DNA from: Escherichia coli
GTDB lineage: Bacteria > Pseudomonadota > Gammaproteobacteria > Enterobacterales > Enterobacteriaceae
Strand: one strand, 5' to 3'
Assembly: GCF_003334815.1 (NCBI RefSeq)
Contig: NZ_QOWO01000009.1
DNA length: 64,000 nucleotides
The notes under the pieces are model-generated. The model saw only the letters and a program-made list of their open reading frames with translations. It made no database searches and was not told the DNA's origin. The translations under genes were made by a program, and so were the position numbers. How positions within the stretch are numbered: position 1 is the first letter of the stretch; every line of letters starts with the position of its first letter. Below, in pieces: positions 32,576 to 46,684 of the stretch.

Positions 32576-33973
32576 ATTTTTACCCGAGTCGCTAATTTTT
32601 GCCGCAAGGTGCTAAGCCGCGAGGAAAGCGAGGCTGAACAGGCAGTCGCCCGTCCACAGGTGACGGTGATCCCGCGTGAGCAGCATGCTATTTCCCGCAA
32701 AGATATCAGTGAAAATGCCCTGAAGGTAATGTACAGGCTCAATAAAGCGGGATACGAAGCCTGGCTGGTTGGCGGCGGCGTGCGCGACCTGTTACTTGGC
32801 AAAAAGCCGAAAGATTTTGACGTAACCACTAACGCCACGCCTGAGCAGGTGCGCAAACTGTTCCGTAACTGCCGCCTGGTGGGTCGCCGTTTCCGTCTGG
32901 CTCATGTAATGTTTGGCCCGGAGATTATCGAAGTTGCGACCTTCCGTGGACACCACGAAGGTAACGTCAGCGACCGCACGACCTCCCAACGCGGGCAAAA
33001 CGGCATGTTGCTGCGCGACAACATTTTCGGCTCCATCGAAGAAGACGCCCAGCGCCGCGATTTCACTATCAACAGCCTGTATTACAGCGTAGCGGATTTT
33101 ACCGTCCGTGATTACGTTGGCGGCATGAAGGATCTGAAGGACGGCGTTATCCGTCTGATTGGTAACCCGGAAACGCGCTACCGTGAAGATCCGGTACGTA
33201 TGCTGCGCGCGGTACGTTTTGCCGCCAAATTGGGTATGCGCATCAGCCCGGAAACCGCAGAACCGATCCCTCGCCTCGCTACCCTGCTGAACGATATCCC
33301 ACCGGCACGCCTGTTTGAAGAATCGCTTAAACTGCTACAAGCGGGCTACGGTTACGAAACCTATAAGCTGTTGTGTGAATATCATCTGTTCCAGCCGCTG
33401 TTCCCGACCATTACCCGCTACTTCACGGAAAATGGCGACAGCCCGATGGAGCGGATCATTGAACAGGTGCTGAAGAATACCGATACGCGTATCCATAACG
33501 ATATGCGCGTGAACCCGGCGTTCCTGTTTGCCGCCATGTTCTGGTACCCACTGCTGGAGACGGCACAGAAGATCGCCCAGGAAAGCGGCCTGACCTATCA
33601 CGACGCTTTCGCGCTGGCGATGAACGACGTGCTGGACGAAGCCTGCCGTTCACTGGCAATCCCGAAACGTCTGACGACATTAACCCGCGATATCTGGCAG
33701 TTGCAGTTGCGTATGTCCCGTCGTCAGGGTAAACGCGCATGGAAACTGCTGGAGCATCCTAAGTTCCGTGCGGCTTATGACCTGTTGGCCTTGCGAGCTG
33801 AAGTTGAGCGTAACGCTGAACTGCAGCGTCTGGTGAAATGGTGGGGTGAGTTCCAGGTTTCCGCGCCACCAGACCAAAAAGGGATGCTCAACGAGCTGGA
33901 TGAAGAACCGTCACCGCGTCGTCGTACTCGTCGTCCACGCAAACGCGCACCACGTCGTGAGGGTACCGCATGA
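32576..33973 (+). CDS. pcnB: poly(A) polymerase I
   Basis: Track ORF 32555..33973 begins at a TTG; the annotated 465-aa protein ([22 protein letters not shown]) corresponds to initiation at the in-frame ATT codon at 32576, the non-canonical AUU start reported for pcnB. Confidence 0.8.
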
Positions 33974-34449
33974 CAGTGGCGTATATTGCCATAGGCAGCA
34001 ATCTGGCCTCTCCGCTGGAGCAGGTCAATGCTGCCCTGAAAGCATTAGGCGATATCCCTGAAAGCCACATTCTTACCGTTTCTTCGTTTTACCGCACCCC
34101 ACCGCTGGGGCCGCAAGATCAACCCGATTACTTAAACGCAGCCGTGGCGCTGGAAACCTCTCTTGCACCTGAAGAGCTACTCAATCACACACAGCGTATT
34201 GAATTGCAGCAAGGTCGCGTCCGCAAAGCTGAACGCTGGGGACCACGCACGCTGGATCTCGACATCATGCTGTTTGGTAATGAAGTGATAAATACTGAAC
34301 GCCTGACCGTTCCGCACTACGATATGAAGAATCGTGGATTTATGCTGTGGCCGCTGTTTGAAATCGCGCCGGAGTTGGTGTTTCCTGATGGGGAGATGTT
34401 GCGTCAAATCTTACATACAAGAGCATTTGACAAATTAAACAAATGGTAA
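33970..34449 (+). CDS. folK: 2-amino-4-hydroxy-6-hydroxymethyldihydropteridine pyrophosphokinase
   Basis: Track ORF 33970..34449, 159 aa, [65 protein letters not shown]; ATG overlaps pcnB stop (ATGA). Confidence 0.95.
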
Positions 34450-34453
34450 TTTA

Positions 34454-34478
34454 TTTATATTGCGAATATAAATATTTT
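34454..34478 (+). terminator. AT-rich hairpin after folK (weak putative terminator)
   Basis: TTTATATT-GCG-AATATAAA stem-loop followed by TATTTT. Confidence 0.3.
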
Positions 34479-34479
34479 C

Positions 34480-34818
34480 TGAAAATCATATCTCATCTCT
34501 TTCCTTAATTACGATTTTAGTTTAAACATCTCTTTGCGGAAATAATATAACTTCCTATAAATAAATATCAATCCCATCTCCATACCCTAACCAATTGCAC
34601 TTGTGAACTTATTTTTACTTAATTTTGAATTAAGTAAATTTAATTTGTTCAAAAGCTTCTAAAGTGCACAATAGGCGACCTAATGAACAATGGTTGTAAA
34701 TTTGGGTAACAAATATCATTGCTCATTAATATCTAACATTTGTTTCTCCTATTTGTGTCATGAATAGTCATTCTTCAAACATGTAGTCTGACTAATGGAA
34801 TTTTATTAAAGGATTTTT
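34480..34818 (+). promoter_or_regulatory. AT-rich upstream regulatory region of the yad fimbrial operon
   Basis: About 340 bp of very AT-rich, curved-DNA-like sequence with long A/T runs immediately upstream of yadN; typical of silenced fimbrial promoters. Confidence 0.4.
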
Positions 34819-35403
34819 ATGTCTAAAAAATTAGGTTTTGCCCTGTCTGGTCTTATGCTGGCGATGGTTGCAGGTACTGCTTCTGCTGATATGGACGGCG
34901 GTCAGTTAAATATCAGTGGTCTGGTTGTTGATAACACCTGTGAAACCCGCGTTGACGGCGGTAACAAGGATGGTCTGATCCTGCTGCAAACCGCAACCGT
35001 TGGTGAAATCGATGCTGGCGTACTGAATGACACCGTTGGCGCTAAAGCTAAACCTTTCAGCATCACCGTTGACTGCAGCAAAGCAAATCCGAATCCAGGT
35101 AGCACGGCTAAAATGACCTTCGGTTCTGTTTTCTTTGGTAACAGCAAAGGGACTTTGAACAACGACATGTCTATTAACAACCCATCTGACGGCGTTAATA
35201 TCGCTCTACACAATATTGATGGTTCCACTATCAAACAGGTTCAAATTAACAACCCTGGCGATGTGTATACTAAAGCCCTGGATGCAACGACAAAATCTGC
35301 TGTTTATGATTTTAAAGCGTCTTACGTTCGTGCCGTCGCAGACCAAACAGCAACTGCTGGTTATGTAAAAACTAACACTGCATACACCATTACTTATCAG
35401 TAA
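34819..35403 (+). CDS. yadN: fimbrial major subunit-like protein
   Basis: Track ORF 34819..35403, 194 aa, signal peptide [23 protein letters not shown], type 1 pilin fold features (conserved Cys pair, C-terminal YTITYQ). Confidence 0.9.
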
Positions 35404-35500
35404 GTATTCACCAGTTAAATTGATTGAATGAATATACAGGGAATAATAATTTCTATTTTATATTATTCCCTGTTTTAATTAACTCTATCAGGGATGGTTT

Positions 35501-36241
35501 ATGTTTTTTAACACCAAACATACAACAGCTTTATGCTTCGTAACCTGTATGGCTTTTAGTTCATCGTCTATTGCGGACATTGTCATTTCGGGTACTCGCG
35601 TAATATATAAAAGCGATCAAAAAAGTGTCAACGTACGTCTGGAAAATAAAGGGAATAACCCGTTGCTTGTCCAGAGTTGGTTAGATACTGGCGATGACAA
35701 CGCTGAGCCTGGCAGTATTACAGTCCCTTTTACTGCTACGCCGCCAGTATCGCGTATTGATGCCAAACGTGGGCAAACAATCAAATTAATGTACACAGCC
35801 AGCACCTCACTGCCTAAAGACAGAGAGAGCGTGTTCTGGTTTAACGTACTGGAAGTTCCACCAAAACCAGATGCAGAAAAGGTCGCGAATCAAAGCCTGC
35901 TGCAACTGGCATTTCGCACACGTATAAAACTTTTCTATCGCCCGGATGGATTGAAGGGAAATCCCTCTGAAGCCCCGTTAGCCCTGAAGTGGTTCTGGTC
36001 AGGTTCAGAAGGTAAGGCGTCATTACGAGTGACCAATCCAACCCCTTACTACGTCTCTTTTAGCAGTGGTGATTTAGAAGCTAGCGGTAAACGCTATCCG
36101 ATTGATGTGAAAATGATTGCACCATTTAGTGATGAGGTCATGAAAGTCAATGGCCTTAATGGCAAAGCGAATTCTGCAAAAGTGCATTTTTACGCCATTA
36201 ATGACTTTGGTGGCGCAATTGAAGGTAATGCCAGGCTGTAA
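35501..36241 (+). CDS. yadV: periplasmic fimbrial chaperone (PapD-like)
   Basis: Track ORF 35501..36241, 246 aa, signal peptide, PapD-like chaperone motifs. Confidence 0.9.
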   Translation: MFFNTKHTTALCFVTCMAFSSSSIADIVISGTRVIYKSDQKSVNVRLENKGNNPLLVQSWLDTGDDNAEPGSITVPFTATPPVSRIDAKRGQTIKLMYTASTSLPKDRESVFWFNVLEVPPKPDAEKVANQSLLQLAFRTRIKLFYRPDGLKGNPSEAPLALKWFWSGSEGKASLRVTNPTPYYVSFSSGDLEASGKRYPIDVKMIAPFSDEVMKVNGLNGKANSAKVHFYAINDFGGAIEGNARL

Positions 36242-36275
36242 TCAGGCAAGGATATAATTCCGCAGGAAGCATAGC

Positions 36276-38873
36276 GTGACTATAGAATATACTAAAAATT
36301 ATCATCATCTGACCCGTATCGCCACGTTTTGCGCGCTGCTGTATTGCAATACTGCTTTCAGTGCTGAACTCGTTGAATATGACCATACCTTCCTGATGGG
36401 GCAGAATGCATCTAATATTGATCTCAGCCGGTACAGTGAAGGTAACCCCGCTATACCGGGTGTTTACGACGTCAGTGTTTATGTAAACGACCAACCAATC
36501 ATTAACCAAAGTATTACATTTGTCGCAATTGAAGGAAAAAAGAACGCCCAGGCTTGTATCACATTAAAGAATTTATTGCAGTTTCATATTAATTCTCCCG
36601 ATATAAATAACGAAAAAGCCGTTCTGCTTGCCAGGGATGAAACGCTCGGCAATTGCCTCAATTTGACGGAAATTATCCCTCAGGCTTCTGTTCGTTATGA
36701 CGTTAACGATCAACGTCTGGATATAGACGTTCCTCAAGCCTGGGTAATGAAAAATTACCAAAACTATGTTGATCCATCGTTATGGGAAAACGGCATTAAT
36801 GCGGCCATGTTGTCATACAACCTCAACGGATATCATAGTGAAACCCCTGGTCGAAAAAATGAAAGCATTTATGCTGCATTTAACGGTGGGATGAATTTAG
36901 GTGCATGGCGACTGCGTGCCTCGGGCAACTACAACTGGATGACCGATTCTGGCAGTAATTATGATTTTAAGAATCGGTATGTTCAGCGTGATATCGCCTC
37001 GCTGCGTTCTCAACTCATTCTTGGTGAGTCTTATACGACGGGCGAAACCTTTGATTCCGTCAGTATCCGAGGCATTCGTTTATACAGTGACAGCCGCATG
37101 TTGCCTCCGACTTTAGCCAGCTTTGCGCCTATCATTCATGGCGTTGCCAATACCAACGCCAAAGTCACTATTACGCAAGGTGGCTATAAGATTTATGAAA
37201 CGACGGTGCCGCCAGGCGCTTTCGTCATTGATGATCTGAGTCCGTCAGGGTACGGCAGCGATCTTATTGTTACCATCGAAGAATCCGATGGCTCAAAGCG
37301 GACATTCTCGCAACCTTTCTCATCCGTTGTTCAAATGTTACGCCCTGGCGTTGGACGTTGGGATATTAGCGGCGGTCAGGTCTTAAAAGATGATATTCAG
37401 GATGAGCCTAATTTATTTCAAGCAAGCTACTACTACGGCCTGAATAACTATCTGACGGGTTATACCGGTATTCAGATAACCGATAATAACTATACCGCTG
37501 GTTTGTTAGGTCTTGGTCTGAATACTTCAGTTGGTGCATTTTCTTTCGATGTGACTCATTCCAATGTTCGTATCCCGGATGATAAAACATACCAGGGGCA
37601 AAGTTATCGTGTTTCCTGGAACAAGTTATTCGAAGAAACAAGTACTTCACTGAATATCGCGGCCTATCGCTATTCGACACAGAATTACCTTGGTCTTAAT
37701 GATGCACTAACTCTAATTGATGAAGTGAAACATCCCGAACAAGATCTTGAACCGAAATCCATGCGTAATTACTCACGCATGAAAAATCAGGTTACGGTCA
37801 GTATTAACCAACCGTTGAAATTTGAGAAAAAAGATTACGGTTCATTTTATCTTTCCGGAAGTTGGTCCGATTACTGGGCTTCCGGACAAAATCGTAGCAA
37901 TTACTCTATTGGCTACAGTAACAGTACATCCTGGGGCAGCTACAGTGTCAGTGCCCAGCGTTCATGGAATGAAGACGGCGACACTGACGATAGCGTTTAT
38001 CTTAGTTTCACCATTCCAATTGAAAAATTACTTGGCACTGAACAACGTACTTCAGGTTTCCAGAGTATTGATACTCAAATAAGCAGTGACTTTAAGGGTA
38101 ATAACCAACTCAACGTTAGCAGCAGTGGCTATAGCGATAACGCTCGCGTCAGTTATAGCGTGAATACTGGCTATACGATGAATAAAGCCAGCAAAGATTT
38201 GAGTTATGTTGGGGGTTATGCCAGCTATGAGTCACCATGGGGAACGCTGGCAGGTTCAATTTCTGCAAATAGCGATAACAGCCGTCAAGTTTCTCTCAGC
38301 ACCGACGGTGGTTTTGTATTGCATAGCGGTGGACTGACTTTCAGTAATGATAGTTTTAGCGACTCCGATACACTGGCGGTAGTTCAGGCTCCAGGTGCTC
38401 AAGGAGCGCGAATAAATTATGGCAACAGTACTATCGATCGATGGGGTTATGGTGTCACCAGCGCTCTTTCTCCTTATCATGAAAACCGTATCGCGCTGGA
38501 TATCAACGATCTTGAGAACGATGTTGAATTAAAAAGTACCAGTGCAGTAGCTGTACCGCGTCAGGGTTCAGTCGTCTTTGCTGATTTTGAAACCGTGCAA
38601 GGGCAATCAGCCATTATGAACATCACACGAAGTGATGGTAAAAATATTCCATTTGCTGCAGATATTTATGATGAGCAAGGCAATGTCATTGGTAATGTTG
38701 GACAGGGTGGACAAGCATTTGTTCGTGGTATTGAGCAGCAGGGAAATATCAGCATTAAATGGCTCGAACAAAGTAAACCCGTAAGTTGTCTTGCGCATTA
38801 TCAACAAAGCCCAGAAGCAGAAAAAATAGCACAATCTATTATTCTGAATGGAATTCGGTGTCAGATTCAGTAA
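36276..38873 (+). CDS. htrE: outer membrane fimbrial usher
   Basis: Track ORF 36276..38873 (GTG start), 865 aa, recognised as HtrE usher. Confidence 0.9.
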   Translation: MTIEYTKNYHHLTRIATFCALLYCNTAFSAELVEYDHTFLMGQNASNIDLSRYSEGNPAIPGVYDVSVYVNDQPIINQSITFVAIEGKKNAQACITLKNLLQFHINSPDINNEKAVLLARDETLGNCLNLTEIIPQASVRYDVNDQRLDIDVPQAWVMKNYQNYVDPSLWENGINAAMLSYNLNGYHSETPGRKNESIYAAFNGGMNLGAWRLRASGNYNWMTDSGSNYDFKNRYVQRDIASLRSQLILGESYTTGETFDSVSIRGIRLYSDSRMLPPTLASFAPIIHGVANTNAKVTITQGGYKIYETTVPPGAFVIDDLSPSGYGSDLIVTIEESDGSKRTFSQPFSSVVQMLRPGVGRWDISGGQVLKDDIQDEPNLFQASYYYGLNNYLTGYTGIQITDNNYTAGLLGLGLNTSVGAFSFDVTHSNVRIPDDKTYQGQSYRVSWNKLFEETSTSLNIAAYRYSTQNYLGLNDALTLIDEVKHPEQDLEPKSMRNYSRMKNQVTVSINQPLKFEKKDYGSFYLSGSWSDYWASGQNRSNYSIGYSNSTSWGSYSVSAQRSWNEDGDTDDSVYLSFTIPIEKLLGTEQRTSGFQSIDTQISSDFKGNNQLNVSSSGYSDNARVSYSVNTGYTMNKASKDLSYVGGYASYESPWGTLAGSISANSDNSRQVSLSTDGGFVLHSGGLTFSNDSFSDSDTLAVVQAPGAQGARINYGNSTIDRWGYGVTSALSPYHENRIALDINDLENDVELKSTSAVAVPRQGSVVFADFETVQGQSAIMNITRSDGKNIPFAADIYDEQGNVIGNVGQGGQAFVRGIEQQGNISIKWLEQSKPVSCLAHYQQSPEAEKIAQSIILNGIRCQIQ

Positions 38874-38889
38874 CTACAAGGGACGTCAA

Positions 38890-39459
38890 ATGATAAAAAC
38901 AACGCCACATAAAATAGTGATACTGATGGGAATATTATTATCACCCTCAGTATTTGCAACGGATATTAATGTAGAGTTTACAGCCACTGTCAAAGCGACA
39001 ACCTGTAACATCACACTTACTGGTAATAACGTCACGAATGATGGCAATAATAACTACACATTGAGAATCCCTAAGATGGGTCTGGATAAGATCGCGAATA
39101 AAACGACAGAATCTCAGGCTGATTTTAAACTGGTTGCCAGTGGGTGCAGCAGTGGCATCAGTTGGATTGATACCACTCTGACCGGAAATGCATCATCAAG
39201 CTCACCTAAGCTTATTATACCGCAGTCTGGTGATTCATCTTCGACGACAAGTAATATCGGTATGGGTTTCAAAAAACGGACTACTGATGATGCCACTTTC
39301 CTTAAACCTAACAGTGCGGAAAAGATACGCTGGAGCACAGACGAGATGCAGCCCGATAAGGGTCTTGAAATGACCGTTGCGCTACGTGAAACAGATGCAG
39401 GGCAAGGTGTACCGGGGAATTTTCGTGCACTGGCGACGTTTAATTTCATCTATCAATAA
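38890..39459 (+). CDS. yadM: fimbrial subunit-like protein
   Basis: Track ORF 38848..39459; trimmed to M15 MIKTTPHKIVILMGILLSPSVFA (signal peptide) with AAGGGA Shine-Dalgarno; 189 aa. Confidence 0.85.
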   Translation: MIKTTPHKIVILMGILLSPSVFATDINVEFTATVKATTCNITLTGNNVTNDGNNNYTLRIPKMGLDKIANKTTESQADFKLVASGCSSGISWIDTTLTGNASSSSPKLIIPQSGDSSSTTSNIGMGFKKRTTDDATFLKPNSAEKIRWSTDEMQPDKGLEMTVALRETDAGQGVPGNFRALATFNFIYQ

Positions 39460-39470
39460 GAAGGATAATT

Positions 39471-40076
39471 ATGATGACATTTAAAAATTTACGTTATGGA
39501 TTATCCAGCAGTGTCGTTTTGGCTGCCTCATTGTTCAGCGTACTCTCTTATGCGGCAACAGACAGTATTGGACTGACCGTTATTACTACTGTAGAAATGG
39601 GTACTTGTACCGCTACATTAGTAAATGACTCTGATCAGGACATTTCTGTTGTTGATTTTGGTGATGTATATATTTCTGAAATCAATGCCAAGACCAAAGT
39701 AAAAACATTCAAACTCAAATTCAAAGACTGTGCGGGTATCCCCAATAAAAAAGCGCAAATAAAATTAACCAAGCGAGCCACATGCGAGGGAACTGCTAAT
39801 GACGGTGCGGGGTTTGCAAATGGTTCCACAGCCGCAGATAAAGCAAGTGCTGTCGCCGTTGAAGTCTGGAGCACTGTAACTCCGGCAACAGGGAGTGCAA
39901 CACAATTTAGCTGTGTAACACCAGCATCACAAGAGGTAACAATCTCCACTGCAGCCAATGCGGTCGTTTATTATCCGATGAGTGCACGCCTGGTCGTGGA
40001 AAAAAATAAAACCGTAAACAATGTCACTGCGGGTAAGTTTTCTGCACCAGCCACATTTACAGTAACCTATAACTAA
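39471..40076 (+). CDS. yadL: fimbrial subunit-like protein
   Basis: Track ORF 39471..40076, 201 aa, signal peptide, C-terminal TFTVTYN pilin-like strand. Confidence 0.85.
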   Translation: MMTFKNLRYGLSSSVVLAASLFSVLSYAATDSIGLTVITTVEMGTCTATLVNDSDQDISVVDFGDVYISEINAKTKVKTFKLKFKDCAGIPNKKAQIKLTKRATCEGTANDGAGFANGSTAADKASAVAVEVWSTVTPATGSATQFSCVTPASQEVTISTAANAVVYYPMSARLVVEKNKTVNNVTAGKFSAPATFTVTYN

Positions 40077-40102
40077 CAGACTTACAGATTCAGGAACTAT
40101 AT

Positions 40103-40699
40103 ATGCATCCCACTCAACGTAAGCTGATGAAGAGAATAATTCTGTTTCTGTCATTACTGTTTTGCATCGCCTGTCCAGCCATTGCTGGACAGGATATTGA
40201 CCTTGTTGCCAATGTAAAAAACAGCACCTGCAAAAGCGGAATCAGTAACCAGGGTAATATTGATCTTGGCGTCGTTGGGGTGGGATATTTTTCAGGTAAT
40301 GTTACTCCTGAAAGTTATCAACCAGGTGGAAAAGAGTTCACTATCACTGTATCCGACTGTGCATTACAGGGAACTGGCGATGTGCTAAATCAGTTACATA
40401 TTGATTTTAGAGCCCTTAGCGGTGTCATGGCTGCTGGCTCTAGGCAAATATTTGCTAATGAAATTTCGTCAGGAGCAAGTAATGTAGGAGTAGTTATATT
40501 TTCTACTCAGGATTCGGCGAATACATTCAATGTTCTTAATGCTTCAGGCGGATCTCGTTCCGTTTATCCAGTAATGTCGGATGACATGAATGGTTCATCC
40601 TGGAAATTTAGCACCCGAATGCAAAAAATCGATCCTGCATTGAGTGTTACATCTGGTCAACTTATGAGCCATGTGTTAGTGGATATTTACTACGAATAA
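40103..40699 (+). CDS. yadK: fimbrial subunit-like protein
   Basis: Track ORF 40103..40699, 198 aa, signal peptide. Confidence 0.85.
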   Translation: MHPTQRKLMKRIILFLSLLFCIACPAIAGQDIDLVANVKNSTCKSGISNQGNIDLGVVGVGYFSGNVTPESYQPGGKEFTITVSDCALQGTGDVLNQLHIDFRALSGVMAAGSRQIFANEISSGASNVGVVIFSTQDSANTFNVLNASGGSRSVYPVMSDDMNGSSWKFSTRMQKIDPALSVTSGQLMSHVLVDIYYE

Positions 40700-40748
40700 C
40701 AAACAAAAACAGCGCAAACCATAACAATAAAGAAACATTGGAGTAAAA

Positions 40749-41987
40749 ATGAAGACTATCTTCAGGTACATTCTTTTTTTAGCACTGTATTCTTGTTGTA
40801 ATACAGTCAGTGCATATACAAGTTTTATTGTGGGAAATAATGCAGGAGTTGATAACTATCGAGGCCCCTCCACTGCCGCACAGATGACCTTTAATTACAC
40901 ATCAACAGCAAGCAACTTGGTTTTTTATAAACCCACGCAGCTCGGCCCGACTGGGGTAAAAATGTACTGGTCATACCTGGATACAGGTACCGGTGGTGGT
41001 ATTCTTTACTGCAATACATCTGGCAGAGCGAATCCTGGTCCAATAACTATTGAAAATGCCATGGTCTATTCAGGTAAAGATTATGGCGGACATAAACTAT
41101 TTAATACATCTGTTCCTGGTCTGTATTACACCATGTTAATATCAAGGGTCTGGTCTGCATACGATACAATAACTGACATTCAATCGCCAGGAATCTATAT
41201 CGGAGATCCTTCCAACCAAGAATTTTTCTTTTCCGTCACAGACAGCGATCTACAAACTAAGGGTTGCAACAAAGCAGACGACTACGATAAGTTTTGGGCT
41301 ATTGGTGGTATAGTACACAACATAACTGTTGAATTTTATACAGATACTAATTTCGATCCTACACTTAATCAGCAAGTCCAGTTATCCAGTTCATCAAATT
41401 ACCTTTATTCGTTTAAGGCCTACAGTCCTGGTACAAAAGTTGTAGATCACAGCAACCACATTTATGTCAATTTCACACTGAATAATGTCAAATTAACCTT
41501 ACCAACATGTTTTACCTCCATACTTACCGGGCCATCAGTCAATGGTTCAACGGTTAGAATGGGAGAATATAGCTCTGGGACAATTAAAAATGGCGCTTCA
41601 CCTGTTCCCTTTGATATCTCGCTTCAGAATTGTATTCGTGTGCGTAATATTGAAACAAAACTCGTCACTGGAAAAGTAGGTACTCAAAACACACAACTGC
41701 TTGGTAATACGCTTACTGGAAGCACTGCCGCCAAAGGCGTTGGCGTACTCATTGAAGGTTTAGCAACCAGTAAAAATCCGCTAATGACATTAAAACCTAA
41801 TGATACGAATTCTGTTTATATAGATTATGAAACCGAAGATGACACCTCCGATGGGGTTTACCCTAATCAAGGTAACGGCACATCACAGCCTCTTCATTTC
41901 CAGGCAACATTAAAGCAAGACGGGAATATTGCTATCGAACCCGGCGAATTTAAAGCCACCAGTACTTTCCAGGTAACCTATCCCTGA
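40749..41987 (+). CDS. yadC: fimbrial tip adhesin-like protein (two-domain)
   Basis: Track ORF 40749..41987, 412 aa, signal peptide; long N-terminal domain plus C-terminal pilin domain ending FQVTYP. Confidence 0.85.
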
Positions 41988-41990
41988 TAA

Positions 41991-42027
41991 CGTAGCAGCA
42001 CTGTCACCTTCTGGCAGTGCTGCTACG
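41991..42027 (+). terminator. stem-loop after yadC (putative operon terminator)
   Basis: 13-bp arms CGTAGCAGCACTG / CAGTGCTGCTACG with 11-nt loop, 4 nt after yadC stop; weak U-tract. Confidence 0.4.
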
Positions 42028-42100
42028 GATAAATCATTGCCCCCACCAATGTGACTGATAAAATGCCAGACAGCACAACATCAATTTATCAGGATACGTT

Positions 42101-42895
42101 ATGAAACCGACCACCATCTCCTTACTGCAGAAGTACAAACAGGAAAAAAAACGTTTCGCGACCATCACCGCTTATGACTATAGCTTCGCCAAACTCTTTG
42201 CTGATGAAGGGCTTAACGTCATGCTGGTGGGCGATTCGCTGGGCATGACGGTTCAGGGGCACGACTCCACCCTGCCAGTTACCGTTGCCGATATCGCCTA
42301 CCACACTGCCGCCGTACGTCGCGGCGCACCAAACTGCCTGCTGCTGGCTGACCTGCCGTTTATGGCGTATGCCACGCCGGAACAAGCCTTCGAAAACGCC
42401 GCAACGGTTATGCGTGCCGGTGCTAACATGGTCAAAATTGAAGGCGGTGAGTGGCTGGTAGAAACCGTACAAATGCTGACCGAACGTGCCGTTCCTGTAT
42501 GTGGTCACTTAGGTTTAACACCACAGTCAGTGAATATTTTCGGTGGCTACAAAGTTCAGGGGCGCGGCGATGAAGCGGGCGATCAACTGCTCAGCGATGC
42601 ATTAGCCTTAGAAGCTGCTGGGGCACAGCTGCTGGTGCTGGAATGCGTGCCGGTTGAACTGGCAAAACGTATTACCGAAGCACTGGCGATCCCGGTTATT
42701 GGCATTGGCGCAGGCAACGTCACTGACGGGCAGATCCTCGTGATGCACGACGCCTTTGGTATTACCGGCGGTCACATTCCTAAATTCGCTAAAAATTTCC
42801 TCGCCGAAACGGGCGACATCCGCGCGGCTGTGCGGCAGTATATGGCTGAAGTGGAGTCCGGCGTTTATCCGGGCGAAGAACACAGTTTCCATTAA
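42101..42895 (+). CDS. panB: 3-methyl-2-oxobutanoate hydroxymethyltransferase
   Basis: Track ORF 42101..42895, 264 aa, [37 protein letters not shown]... Confidence 0.95.
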
Positions 42896-43831: not shown

Positions 43832-44014
43832 TTAAATAAGGTTAATTACCTTATCAATCTCAGCAAGAGGTAAATTTGCCATCTCTGCAACGTCTTCCCG
43901 AGACATTCCTTTACTCAGAAGACGCTGGGCGAATTCCTGACTTACTTCCTGTCTTCCCTGCTGAATCCCCTTCTCAATCCCTTTCTCTTCAAACCACTGC
44001 GCCAGCGTCATCAT
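43832..44014 (-). CDS. candidate intragenic small protein (C-terminal 60 aa of YadD/RpnC; putative Rpn_S-type product)
   Basis: In-frame ATG-ATG doublet (minus-strand start 44014) preceded by ACGGGAGGGGAGTCT (GGAGG 7 nt upstream); would encode MMTLAQWFEEKGIEKGIQQGRQEVSQEFAQRLLSKGMSREDVAEMANLPLAEIDKVINLI; not verified. Confidence 0.4.
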   Translation of the reverse strand: MMTLAQWFEEKGIEKGIQQGRQEVSQEFAQRLLSKGMSREDVAEMANLPLAEIDKVINLI

Positions 44015-44734
44015 AGACTCCCCTCCCGTTTCCCTGTCTCTCAACACACCGTAAAACAAATCCGCTTGTTCAGTATGACCGCGTTGCAGCATATAGTTTT
44101 GCATGGCAACTAACTGACTTCCGCTAGTGTACCCTTCGTCGATCAGCGTGACCAGTTGCTCAAGCAATAACATTAAGTCGCGCTGGCGAATATGTTTTTG
44201 CAGTAGTTCGAGAATCGCAATCCGCCGATGTTGCATGATTTCGTCATCCGGTGTGATGGTGATATCCACCAGCGGGAAAGGACTGTTATAGACGCGTCGC
44301 GCCAGCTCCGGCGAGTAAAACATATCAAACCAGCACATTGATAGCGGATAAGGTGTGGCCTCGCCCTGATAAAACAGTATCGGCACCACCAGCGGCAGCT
44401 TATCGTGGTCAGCCTCCAGATGCCGGTGCATGGCGGCTATAGAATAACGCATCATGCGAAAGGCCATTTTCTTATCCGGCTTGCTTTGGTGTTCAATCAC
44501 AACATGCAGATAACCGGGATTGCCCTGCATTTGCACGGAATAGAGCACGTCCGTGCTGTGTCCTTTCAGGCTCTCTTCAATGAAACTCCCCGACTCTAAA
44601 TGAAGCGTGTTGAGGTCACAAAGTTCGCGTAATTCCACTGGCAAATGTATCTCCAGAAAGTCGCGAGCCGTCTCCGCATGCATTAAAAATTGTTTAAATA
44701 CCGCGTCATGCGGTGTGGTACTCGGTGCATCCAT
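43832..44734 (-). CDS. rpnC: Rpn-family recombination-promoting nuclease (YhgA-like, PD-(D/E)XK, transposase_31 family)
   Basis: Track ORF 43832..44734 (-), 300 aa, MDAPSTTPHDAVFKQFLMHAETARDFLEIHLP...; recognised as YadD (RpnC); AGGGA Shine-Dalgarno upstream. Confidence 0.9.
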   Translation of the reverse strand: MDAPSTTPHDAVFKQFLMHAETARDFLEIHLPVELRELCDLNTLHLESGSFIEESLKGHSTDVLYSVQMQGNPGYLHVVIEHQSKPDKKMAFRMMRYSIAAMHRHLEADHDKLPLVVPILFYQGEATPYPLSMCWFDMFYSPELARRVYNSPFPLVDITITPDDEIMQHRRIAILELLQKHIRQRDLMLLLEQLVTLIDEGYTSGSQLVAMQNYMLQRGHTEQADLFYGVLRDRETGGESMMTLAQWFEEKGIEKGIQQGRQEVSQEFAQRLLSKGMSREDVAEMANLPLAEIDKVINLI

Positions 44735-46621: not shown

Positions 46622-46684
46622 GAAAAAATAACCGAGGGTGAAACAACGCTTTTATTGTAGCAAAAGCGCCATCAGAATCGCGGG

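Follow-up and report, generated by a model that had tools for sequence, protein, structure and literature searches.

The 64-kb stretch of Escherichia coli DNA analysed here (the window) carries, between folK and panB, seven intact genes that read in one direction, yadN-yadV(ecpD)-htrE-yadM-yadL-yadK-yadC, as given by the list of open reading frames. All lie on the plus strand, separated by gaps of 11 to 97 bp, and RefSeq annotates the same gene set in a near-identical K-12 record. The sequence is that of E. coli K-12 strains: between 34000 and 42200 it differs from strain ER1709 at a single position, a synonymous SNP in yadM. Elsewhere in the window there is a 1-bp indel with respect to ER1709, which puts the two out of register beyond 46628. 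The observation made in the initial annotation, that of a chaperone-usher fimbrial operon, is confirmed, with the genes at 34819-41987. Table 1 gives the genes together with the elements that surround them.

Table 1. Genes and other features of the yad locus, in window coordinates
Feature	Position	Strand	Description
Left junction	34392-34449	+	Final ~17 codons of folK; DNA identity across haplotypes drops off sharply past ...TTTCCTGATGG
folK-yadN spacer	34450-34818	+	Regulatory region and H-NS target; published 'promoter island' 156927_379
Conserved block GAATATAAATATTTTCTGAAAA	34464-34485	+	Most conserved stretch of the spacer among alleles of the K-12 family and WP4 type (seven-allele alignment)
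Palindrome ACTTAATT-ttg-AATTAAGT	34617-34635	+	Core of a 41-bp near-palindrome (34606-34646); conserved in 6 of 7 related alleles
yadN	34819-35403	+	Major pilin, 194 aa; PF00419 over residues 31-194 (E=9.8e-12); resembles Salmonella StaA
Hairpin after yadN	35436-35477	+	13-bp stem followed by UUUU; fold z -2.9
yadV (ecpD)	35501-36241	+	PapD-like periplasmic chaperone, 246 aa; NF007398, 472 bits (cut-off 285), residues 1-246 of 246
htrE	36276-38873	+	Outer-membrane usher, 865 aa; NF007337, 1701 bits (cut-off 830), positions 3-865 of 865
yadM	38890-39459	+	Minor pilin, StaD/FimF-like; open frame extends back to 38848
yadL	39471-40076	+	Minor pilin; missing in the six-gene WP4-type allele
yadK	40103-40699	+	Minor pilin; NF011794, 311 bits
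yadC	40749-41987 (RefSeq start 40737)	+	Two-domain tip adhesin; adhesin model 885 bits (cut-off 382); PF00419 in C-terminal half
Hairpin after yadC stop	41991-42027	+	16-bp, GC-rich, without U-run; dG -30.4 kcal/mol, z -6.8
panB promoter-like site	42037-42064	+	TTGCCC-16-TG-TAAAAT; conserved sequence begins here, the right edge of the cassette

Gene products and the Yad fibre

The roles first assigned to the genes, those of a major pilin, a PapD-like chaperone, an usher, three minor pilins and a two-domain adhesin, are borne out by family models, Pfam and fold matches. The chaperone, the usher, YadL, YadK and the YadC adhesin are confirmed by NCBIfam equivalog models. YadM, like YadL and YadK, matches pilin equivalog models, and HtrE is matched also by models of FimD, LpfC and other ushers. 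The elements of a classical chaperone-usher system are all present: a chaperone, an usher, pilins of the PF00419 fold with the gene for the major subunit at the 5' end, and a two-domain tip adhesin. In published work YadN is the most abundant subunit.

A search of PDB sequences with YadC returned no match, and Pfam places PF00419 in its C-terminal half with E=7.8e-14. An AlphaFold2 model of the protein (mean pLDDT 74.8) matches the folds of LpfD, CupB6, FimH, FocH, PapG, the lectin domain of UclD and the pilins FimI and FimA. The claim of a two-domain tip adhesin is upheld by this structural prediction, in that the model matches other two-domain tip adhesins and lectin domains. The match to LpfD, the adhesin of long polar fimbriae, and to the F17-like UclD/GafD lectin domains is one of fold, with identity of just 7-14%, and a ligand is not implied by the fold. 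The initial annotation held that the specificity of the adhesin is not deducible from sequence. It is indeed unreadable there, but the ligands are known from published experiments, in which YadC binds xylose and annexin A2.

In the explanation favoured here, the pilins are exported to the periplasm and held there by the chaperone YadV, and the usher HtrE joins them by donor-strand exchange as it threads out the fibre. YadC stands at the tip, followed by YadK, YadL and YadM (in that tentative order) and then by a shaft of YadN. Constitutive expression of the operon yields functional Yad fimbriae (PMC3559732, PMC5797941), and a surface fibre has been reported both for K-12 and for ExPEC (PMC3559732, PMC5797941, PMC13245861).

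These are the Yad fimbriae, yadN-ecpD-htrE-yadMLKC, as described by Korea (2010), Larsonneur (2016) and Ellison (2026): the locus, the gene set, the silencing by H-NS and the tip adhesin are all the same. Outside of E. coli, a close known system is Salmonella Sta (staA-G): after the E. coli models, YadN, YadM and YadL best match those of StaA, StaD and StaE. Sta shares with Yad its chromosomal position and its usher clade (Wurpel et al. 2013, PMC3559732). Nonetheless, the Yad scores all fall under the Sta equivalog cut-offs (for StaA, 122 bits as against 230), so the two are to be considered homologues, not equivalents. Type 1 fimbriae (fimAICDFGH) are different again, with two minor subunits as opposed to the three of Yad, which has neither an invertible fimS switch nor a recombinase and whose lectin domain differs in sequence and has no Pfam match.

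Base composition, silencing and transcription

AT-richness of the kind that marks loci silenced by H-NS is present in the operon and is strongest at the promoter region: 26.6% GC in the 369-bp folK-yadN spacer, as compared with 42.4% in the operon and 51.3% in the whole window. No other stretch of such size in the 64 kb is as AT-rich as the spacer; 369-bp windows equally low in GC amount to 0.024% of the total, and all of them are at the spacer site. The GC content of the spacer is kept at 23-31% in every haplotype and species examined. As for the genes, each of the seven has a GC3 (0.34-0.41) below that of all 46 other genes in the window (mean 0.569, sd 0.040, minimum 0.484; Mann-Whitney U=0, p=2.5e-5). 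The choice of synonymous codons is atypical in yadM, yadL, yadK and yadC (z -2.7 to -3.2) and near normal in yadN (z -0.3). The operon had been described as more AT-rich than the flanking folK and panB genes, and so it is: windowed GC and codon usage both set it apart from its neighbours.

The spacer is the same object as the H-NS-bound promoter island 156927_379 in the list of Panyukov and Ozoline (2013), which maps to 34397-34775 of the window (PMC3661553). The palindrome within it is a candidate site for a regulator. A scan for the sigma-70 consensus, with a threshold of 9 out of 12 positions, found no sense-strand promoter in the spacer, just sites of antisense orientation (34571-34542 and 34827-34800), and for this reason the sequence does not allow the start of yad transcription to be located. 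A CpxR-like site, GTAAA-N5-GTAAC at 34696-34710, was rejected as being at the level of chance (8 matches, 3.5 expected); since seven alleles share TGT.A...T..GTAA without variation, it is kept as a weak lead. The high-affinity motif of H-NS, TCGATAAATT, is not enriched (74 matches, 60.5 expected), and in the spacer it has no match with fewer than two mismatches.

Silencing by nucleoid proteins, initially surmised from the composition, finds its confirmation in the literature, which reports repression of yad by H-NS in both K-12 and ExPEC (PMC13245861, PMC5797941, PMC3661553). Binding of H-NS at yad is seen by ChIP in three data sets, and SlyA induces the operon (PMC5797941), as does BolA (PMC4337573). 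The activity of the yad promoter is up more than 100-fold in an hns deletion, and serum induces yad in ExPEC (PMC13245861). During growth in the laboratory the operon is kept silent by H-NS, bound to both the spacer and the genes, all of them AT-rich. Derepression comes about through loss of H-NS, overproduction of SlyA or BolA, low temperature or anaerobiosis (via ArcA) or, in ExPEC, exposure to serum.

The locus has two hairpins. One is found 3' of the major pilin gene in 16 out of 16 cassettes, usually with a T-rich tail and with sequences that are unrelated, and another after yadC in 14 out of 14, again with sequences that differ. Judged by sequence, the hairpin after yadN may be a partial terminator or attenuator, its U-run probably letting pass only part of transcription, which would give an excess of YadN transcript and so of shaft pilin. 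The GC-rich hairpin after yadC may mark the end of the operon or stabilise the 3' end, and in either case it would probably act on the transcript ahead of the panB promoter. A scan of 33900-42300 with Rfam models (E<=1) gave nothing but a chance match of a miRNA model to the yadN-yadV hairpin.

There are other ways to account for an operon that is silent. It might be silent since broken, a decayed remnant without function, and other strains do show damage: yadC with an internal stop, yadM with a frameshift, and inserted IS elements. In the present sequence, however, all seven frames are intact and of full length relative to curated models, the function of the fimbriae on constitutive expression has been noted above, and assembly of a YadN fibre under a foreign promoter has already been reported for K-12. 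Decay is hardly credible in this strain. Or the 369-bp spacer might be a phase-variation switch, invertible as in fim or dependent on Dam and Lrp as in pap. It does contain several inverted repeats, amongst them a perfect 11-bp pair 96 bp apart and the 41-bp near-palindrome, but short AT-only repeats are to be expected at 27% GC. The spacer has no GATC site (1.5 expected), the annotation of the flanking region shows no recombinase gene nearby, and Yad is stated not to be phase-variable (PMC13245861). A switch of either type is very improbable. Silencing by H-NS is the explanation adopted here. The ecpD-htrE pair was reportedly first described by Raina et al. in 1993 as a two-gene operon related to heat, and the locus might consist of nested units: yadN alone, a stress-responsive and separately driven ecpD-htrE, and a distal unit of subunit genes. 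A U-run hairpin follows yadN in all alleles, the O157-type (EHEC) allele is transcribed as three units according to RT-PCR (PMC11287998), and genomic SELEX gives weak peaks of RpoH and RpoE holoenzyme at about 36260 (in the yadV-htrE spacer) and about 37466 (inside htrE). Because of the three EHEC units and the SELEX peaks, to speak of one operon of seven genes may be to oversimplify. On the other hand, the peaks are of low intensity, the EHEC allele is very divergent from that of K-12 (the ushers are 60% identical), the genes are co-directional and closely spaced, and in both CFT073 and EC958 mutation of hns raises all seven at once (PMC13245861). I regard nested units as rather unlikely, though worth keeping in mind.

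The folK-panB slot and its cassettes

Of 5,426 complete E. coli genomes, at least 4,948 (at least 91%) have a yad-like operon, with a cassette at least 80% complete, in the slot between folK and panB. The other genomes, about 478, are unclassified, and their slots may be disrupted, carry a prophage or contain further alleles. No empty slot was found among the E. coli genomes examined. The slot is filled as well in E. albertii (seen from the folK side, the contig ending before panB), in E. whittamii and two further species of Escherichia, in Citrobacter portucalensis and in a Pseudocitrobacter. The peptide patterns used to scan the genome collection are too specific to reach Salmonella, and synteny with Sta rests on Wurpel et al. 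(2013, PMC3559732), who call Yad "core-associated", find it in the same position as Sta and place the locus in the ancestor of Escherichia and Salmonella. At the left edge of the cassette, the C-terminal tail of FolK beyond a conserved FPDG changes with the class of fimbrial haplotype.

The initial annotation saw in the operon an accessory element, horizontally acquired and set in core DNA. A recently acquired, AT-rich genomic island would fit with a GC3 that lies 4 to 6 sd below that of neighbouring genes and with the prediction by GIST of a horizontal origin for yadN (PMC5797941). It would fit also with the conflict between the usher tree and the species tree, in which the O157 allele is nearer to that of Pseudocitrobacter than to that of K-12, a disagreement that makes the exchange of alleles between species plausible. 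What the island does not fit is the distribution of the operon, with the same slot and the same gene order in the great majority of E. coli, as counted above, and, across three genera, in five further species, nor the origin that Wurpel et al. assign to it. The junctions, at the 3' end of folK and at the panB promoter, lie where homologous replacement, not insertion, would be expected to put them. The annotation of flanking genes shows no mobility signature, be it integrase, transposase, tRNA gene or flanking repeats. Of the marks of a genomic island, atypical composition is present, and patchy presence and mobility signatures are not; atypical composition by itself does not define a horizontally acquired island. 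A recent island is improbable, and the accessory character and simple horizontal acquisition are unsupported as they were put forward, given a slot that is filled so widely in E. coli and in other genera.

I conclude with high confidence that this is the K-12 Yad chaperone-usher fimbrial operon, silenced by H-NS and an ancient fixture between folK and panB, where low GC is a property that the locus maintains and does not point to recent import. Much of this is already published, namely the Yad operon itself, its silencing by H-NS, the promoter island, function on forced expression and the two ligands.

The variety of cassettes takes matters a modest step beyond published knowledge. E. coli has at least three deep cassette lineages, whose ushers share 57-61% identity from one lineage to another, a distance equal to that between the alleles of E. 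coli and Citrobacter, and five cassette types without any cross-match at the level of DNA. One view is that the slot maintains a long-lived, trans-species polymorphism of whole cassettes, in which modules recombine separately and in which AT-richness, the AT-rich spacer and the two hairpins are under selection in all lineages, as opposed to being relics of a recent transfer. The modules would be the spacer with yadN, the chaperone and usher genes with yadM and yadL, and the 3' end of yadK with yadC, and the junctions would be fixed, on the left within the ~17 final codons of folK and on the right immediately ahead of the panB promoter. I put the chances of this view at about even. If it is true, then published "Yad-negative" calls in phylogroups D and E stem from an identity threshold.

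At the yad locus, low GC and binding by H-NS do not amount to a recent or dispensable import, and this is a correction of concept. Polymorphism of the cassettes could improve how the presence of Yad is scored in epidemiology. It bears also on how the specificity of adhesins diversifies, and it offers a test case of whether or not the AT-richness of silenced operons is selected.

An AT-rich cassette in an occupied slot

Sequence 34000-42200 matches E. coli K-12-derived chromosomes, with one SNP relative to strain ER1709, a synonymous change in yadM (39408, Gly173 GGT/GGC). Elsewhere the window differs from ER1709 by a 1-bp change at 46628, in an A-run upstream of yadE, and by SNPs at 6421, 11273, 17342, 19536, 19876, 24201, 25491, 27289, 30593 and 31439 (11 with 39408). 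RefSeq gives the order folK, yadN, yadV, htrE, yadM, yadL, yadK, yadC, panB, and the seven co-directional frames lie where the initial annotation had placed them, except that RefSeq starts yadC at 40737 rather than 40749; it starts yadM at 38890, within a frame open back to 38848. The fimbrial roles assigned to the genes are right. NCBIfam equivalog models recognize the chaperone, usher, YadL, YadK and YadC at full length and above curated cut-offs, the second-best models for YadN, YadM and YadL being Salmonella StaA, StaD and StaE, whose cut-offs are not reached. Pfam finds a Fimbrial domain in YadN and in YadC residues 265-411, and no domain in the N-terminal half of YadC.

The AT-richness claimed for operon and spacer is real and far beyond chance. 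The 369-bp folK-yadN spacer (26.6% GC) is the lowest stretch of that length in the 64 kb, and the operon has 42.4% GC, as against 51.3% for the window. In GC3 each of the seven yad genes is lower than any of the 46 other window genes (mean 0.569, minimum 0.484; U=0, p=2.5e-5), and it declines along the operon, yadN having 0.41 and yadK and yadC 0.34. The codon contrast is weak for yadN, where synonymous choice is near normal; it is clearly atypical in yadM, yadL, yadK and yadC. AT-richness is a stable property of the locus, because in every allele the spacer stays at 23-31% GC and the whole cassette at 42-49%.

It was also supposed that the operon is accessory DNA, horizontally acquired. Occupancy of the slot does not support this. 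Megablast was run on 5,426 complete E. coli genomes, a cassette counting when at least 80% of it was covered; 4,948 (91%) carry one of five types: the K-12 family (3,913), the WP4 type, with six genes and no yadL (459), the O157:H7 type (420), XYEH3314 (155) and E69 (1). Wurpel et al. 2013 likewise classed Yad as core-associated; 94% of the strains they surveyed had it intact, and they place it where Salmonella carries Sta (PMC3559732). When a single genome was scanned for each species, the same folK-panB gene order appeared in E. whittamii, two further Escherichia species, Citrobacter portucalensis and a Pseudocitrobacter, and on the folK side in E. albertii, where the contig stops before panB. 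The annotation of the flanks shows neither an integrase nor a tRNA gene, and no repeats bordering the cassette. The yad locus is an old resident of its site, not an island.

The one seemingly empty slot examined, in E. coli strain 132, has a Mu-like prophage directly 3' of folK. Operons in other strains have been inactivated repeatedly, through a stop codon inside yadC, a frameshifted yadM, and insertions of IS1, IS3, IS903B, ISKpn26 and IS1203 (see table; also genome matches H3, H18, H23, H31, H32, H48 and H51).

Features of the yad locus and of folK-panB loci in other genomes (window positions unless a locus is named)
Feature	Position	Details
Left junction, folK 3' end	34392-34449	identity drops sharply past ...FPDG codons
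Promoter island 156927_379	34397-34775	window = 191702 minus MG1655 coordinate
Conserved palindromic spacer block	34464-34485	GAATATAAATA..TTC.GAAAA; alignment of related alleles
Conserved palindromic spacer block	34606-34646	
Conserved spacer palindrome	34617-34635	ACTTAATT-ttg-AATTAAGT; alignment of related alleles
Conserved 5' leader	spacer	AAGGA ribosome-binding site; alignment of related alleles
Hairpin 3' of yadN	35436-35477	13-bp stem then UUUU; z -2.9
Hairpin 3' of yadC	41991-42027	16-bp GC stem, no U-run; dG -30.4 kcal/mol, z -6.8
panB promoter-like site	42037-42064	conserved; right junction immediately 5'
rpnC, recombination-promoting nuclease	43832-44734	minus strand
Mu-like prophage, strain 132	L002 10908-20410	Mu transposase, Gam, related genes, where yad spacer normally starts
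Disrupted operons	L014 6994-8337; L017 5195-5765	
Second adhesin class	L003 16646-17758; L013 9910-11019; L010 14373-15485; L012 14370-15473	~370 aa
Extra sequence, Escherichia sp. MOD1-EC7003	L007 6422-8469	~2 kb between yadK-like and adhesin genes

The tip adhesin

The reading of YadC as a two-domain tip adhesin holds on its predicted structure. The AlphaFold2 model, derived from nine alleles (mean pLDDT 74.8, lectin core mostly 75-95), matches the tip adhesins LpfD, CupB6, FocH, FimH and PapG, over the whole protein or the N-terminal domain; it also matches the UclD, AtfE, MrkD and GafD lectin domains, sequence identity throughout being 7-17%. The modelled fold is uninformative on ligand; published ligands are xylose-containing glycans and annexin A2 (PMC13245861). 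In the second adhesin class only the pilin domain aligns with YadC (~28% identity). The N-terminal domain is unalignable, which implies a different receptor for O157:H7 and related alleles.

Silencing and transcription units

That a nucleoid protein silences the operon is correct. H-NS represses yad in K-12 and ExPEC, and its deletion raises promoter activity more than 100-fold and brings YadN to the cell surface (PMC13245861). The spacer is catalogued as an H-NS-associated promoter island (PMC3661553), and yadN appears in three H-NS ChIP data sets and rises 2.4-fold in K-12 on SlyA overproduction (PMC5797941). Several yad genes are also induced when BolA is overproduced (PMC4337573). Human serum is another inducer, deletion of the operon lessens tissue colonisation, and Yad is reported as not phase-variable (PMC13245861); constitutive expression yields functional fimbriae (PMC3559732, PMC5797941). 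Every check proposed in the initial annotation has already been carried out and published, and the operon as described there is a known feature of low interest.

To call it one operon may be too simple. Three transcription units are reported for the O157-type allele (PMC11287998), and published genomic SELEX records weak binding by the RpoH and RpoE holoenzymes at two places, near 36260 between yadV and htrE and near 37466 within htrE, which hints at internal stress-responsive promoters. Against several units stands the joint rise of all seven genes in hns mutants (PMC13245861). A consensus scan of the spacer placed no sense-strand promoter. Two palindromic blocks are conserved amid an otherwise fast-diverging spacer. 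In 16 of 16 cassettes the major pilin gene is followed by a hairpin, in most cases ending in a T-rich tail, though the sequences are unrelated; that of yadN probably acts as a partial terminator, enriching shaft-pilin message. The yadC hairpin has a counterpart in 14 of 14.

Divergent cassettes between fixed junctions

Compared with the K-12 usher, those of its own family share 85-98% identity and that of the WP4 type 75%. The O157, XYEH3314 and E69 ushers reach only about 60%, comparable to K-12 against Citrobacter (62%), whereas panB is 96-100% identical within E. coli. By this measure the alleles are extraordinarily divergent. The O157 usher groups not with other E. coli alleles but with Escherichia sp. 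E1V33 (98%), E. albertii (89%) and Pseudocitrobacter (71%). In one published survey, phylogroups D and E came out as mostly lacking Yad, at a threshold of 80% identity to a single usher (PMC13245861); the WP4-type and O157-type cassettes suggest that the threshold may have produced those scores.

Cassettes are mosaic even within the K-12 family. Strain 12689 has an identical (100%) YadN and a YadC of only 64% identity; in Ecol_244 the spacer, yadN and yadC have diverged while the stretch from the 3' end of yadV to yadL is near-identical. The L007 cassette probably carries an additional gene, given its extra sequence. The left recombination junction lies inside folK, because the last ~17 residues of FolK, a housekeeping enzyme, differ between strains and follow the neighbouring fimbrial haplotype. 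Downstream of this hypervariable cassette, at 1.8 kb, lies rpnC, possibly by coincidence.

Deep modular polymorphism of the cassette between fixed junctions is a modest extension of a known feature, and it merits population-genetic follow-up.
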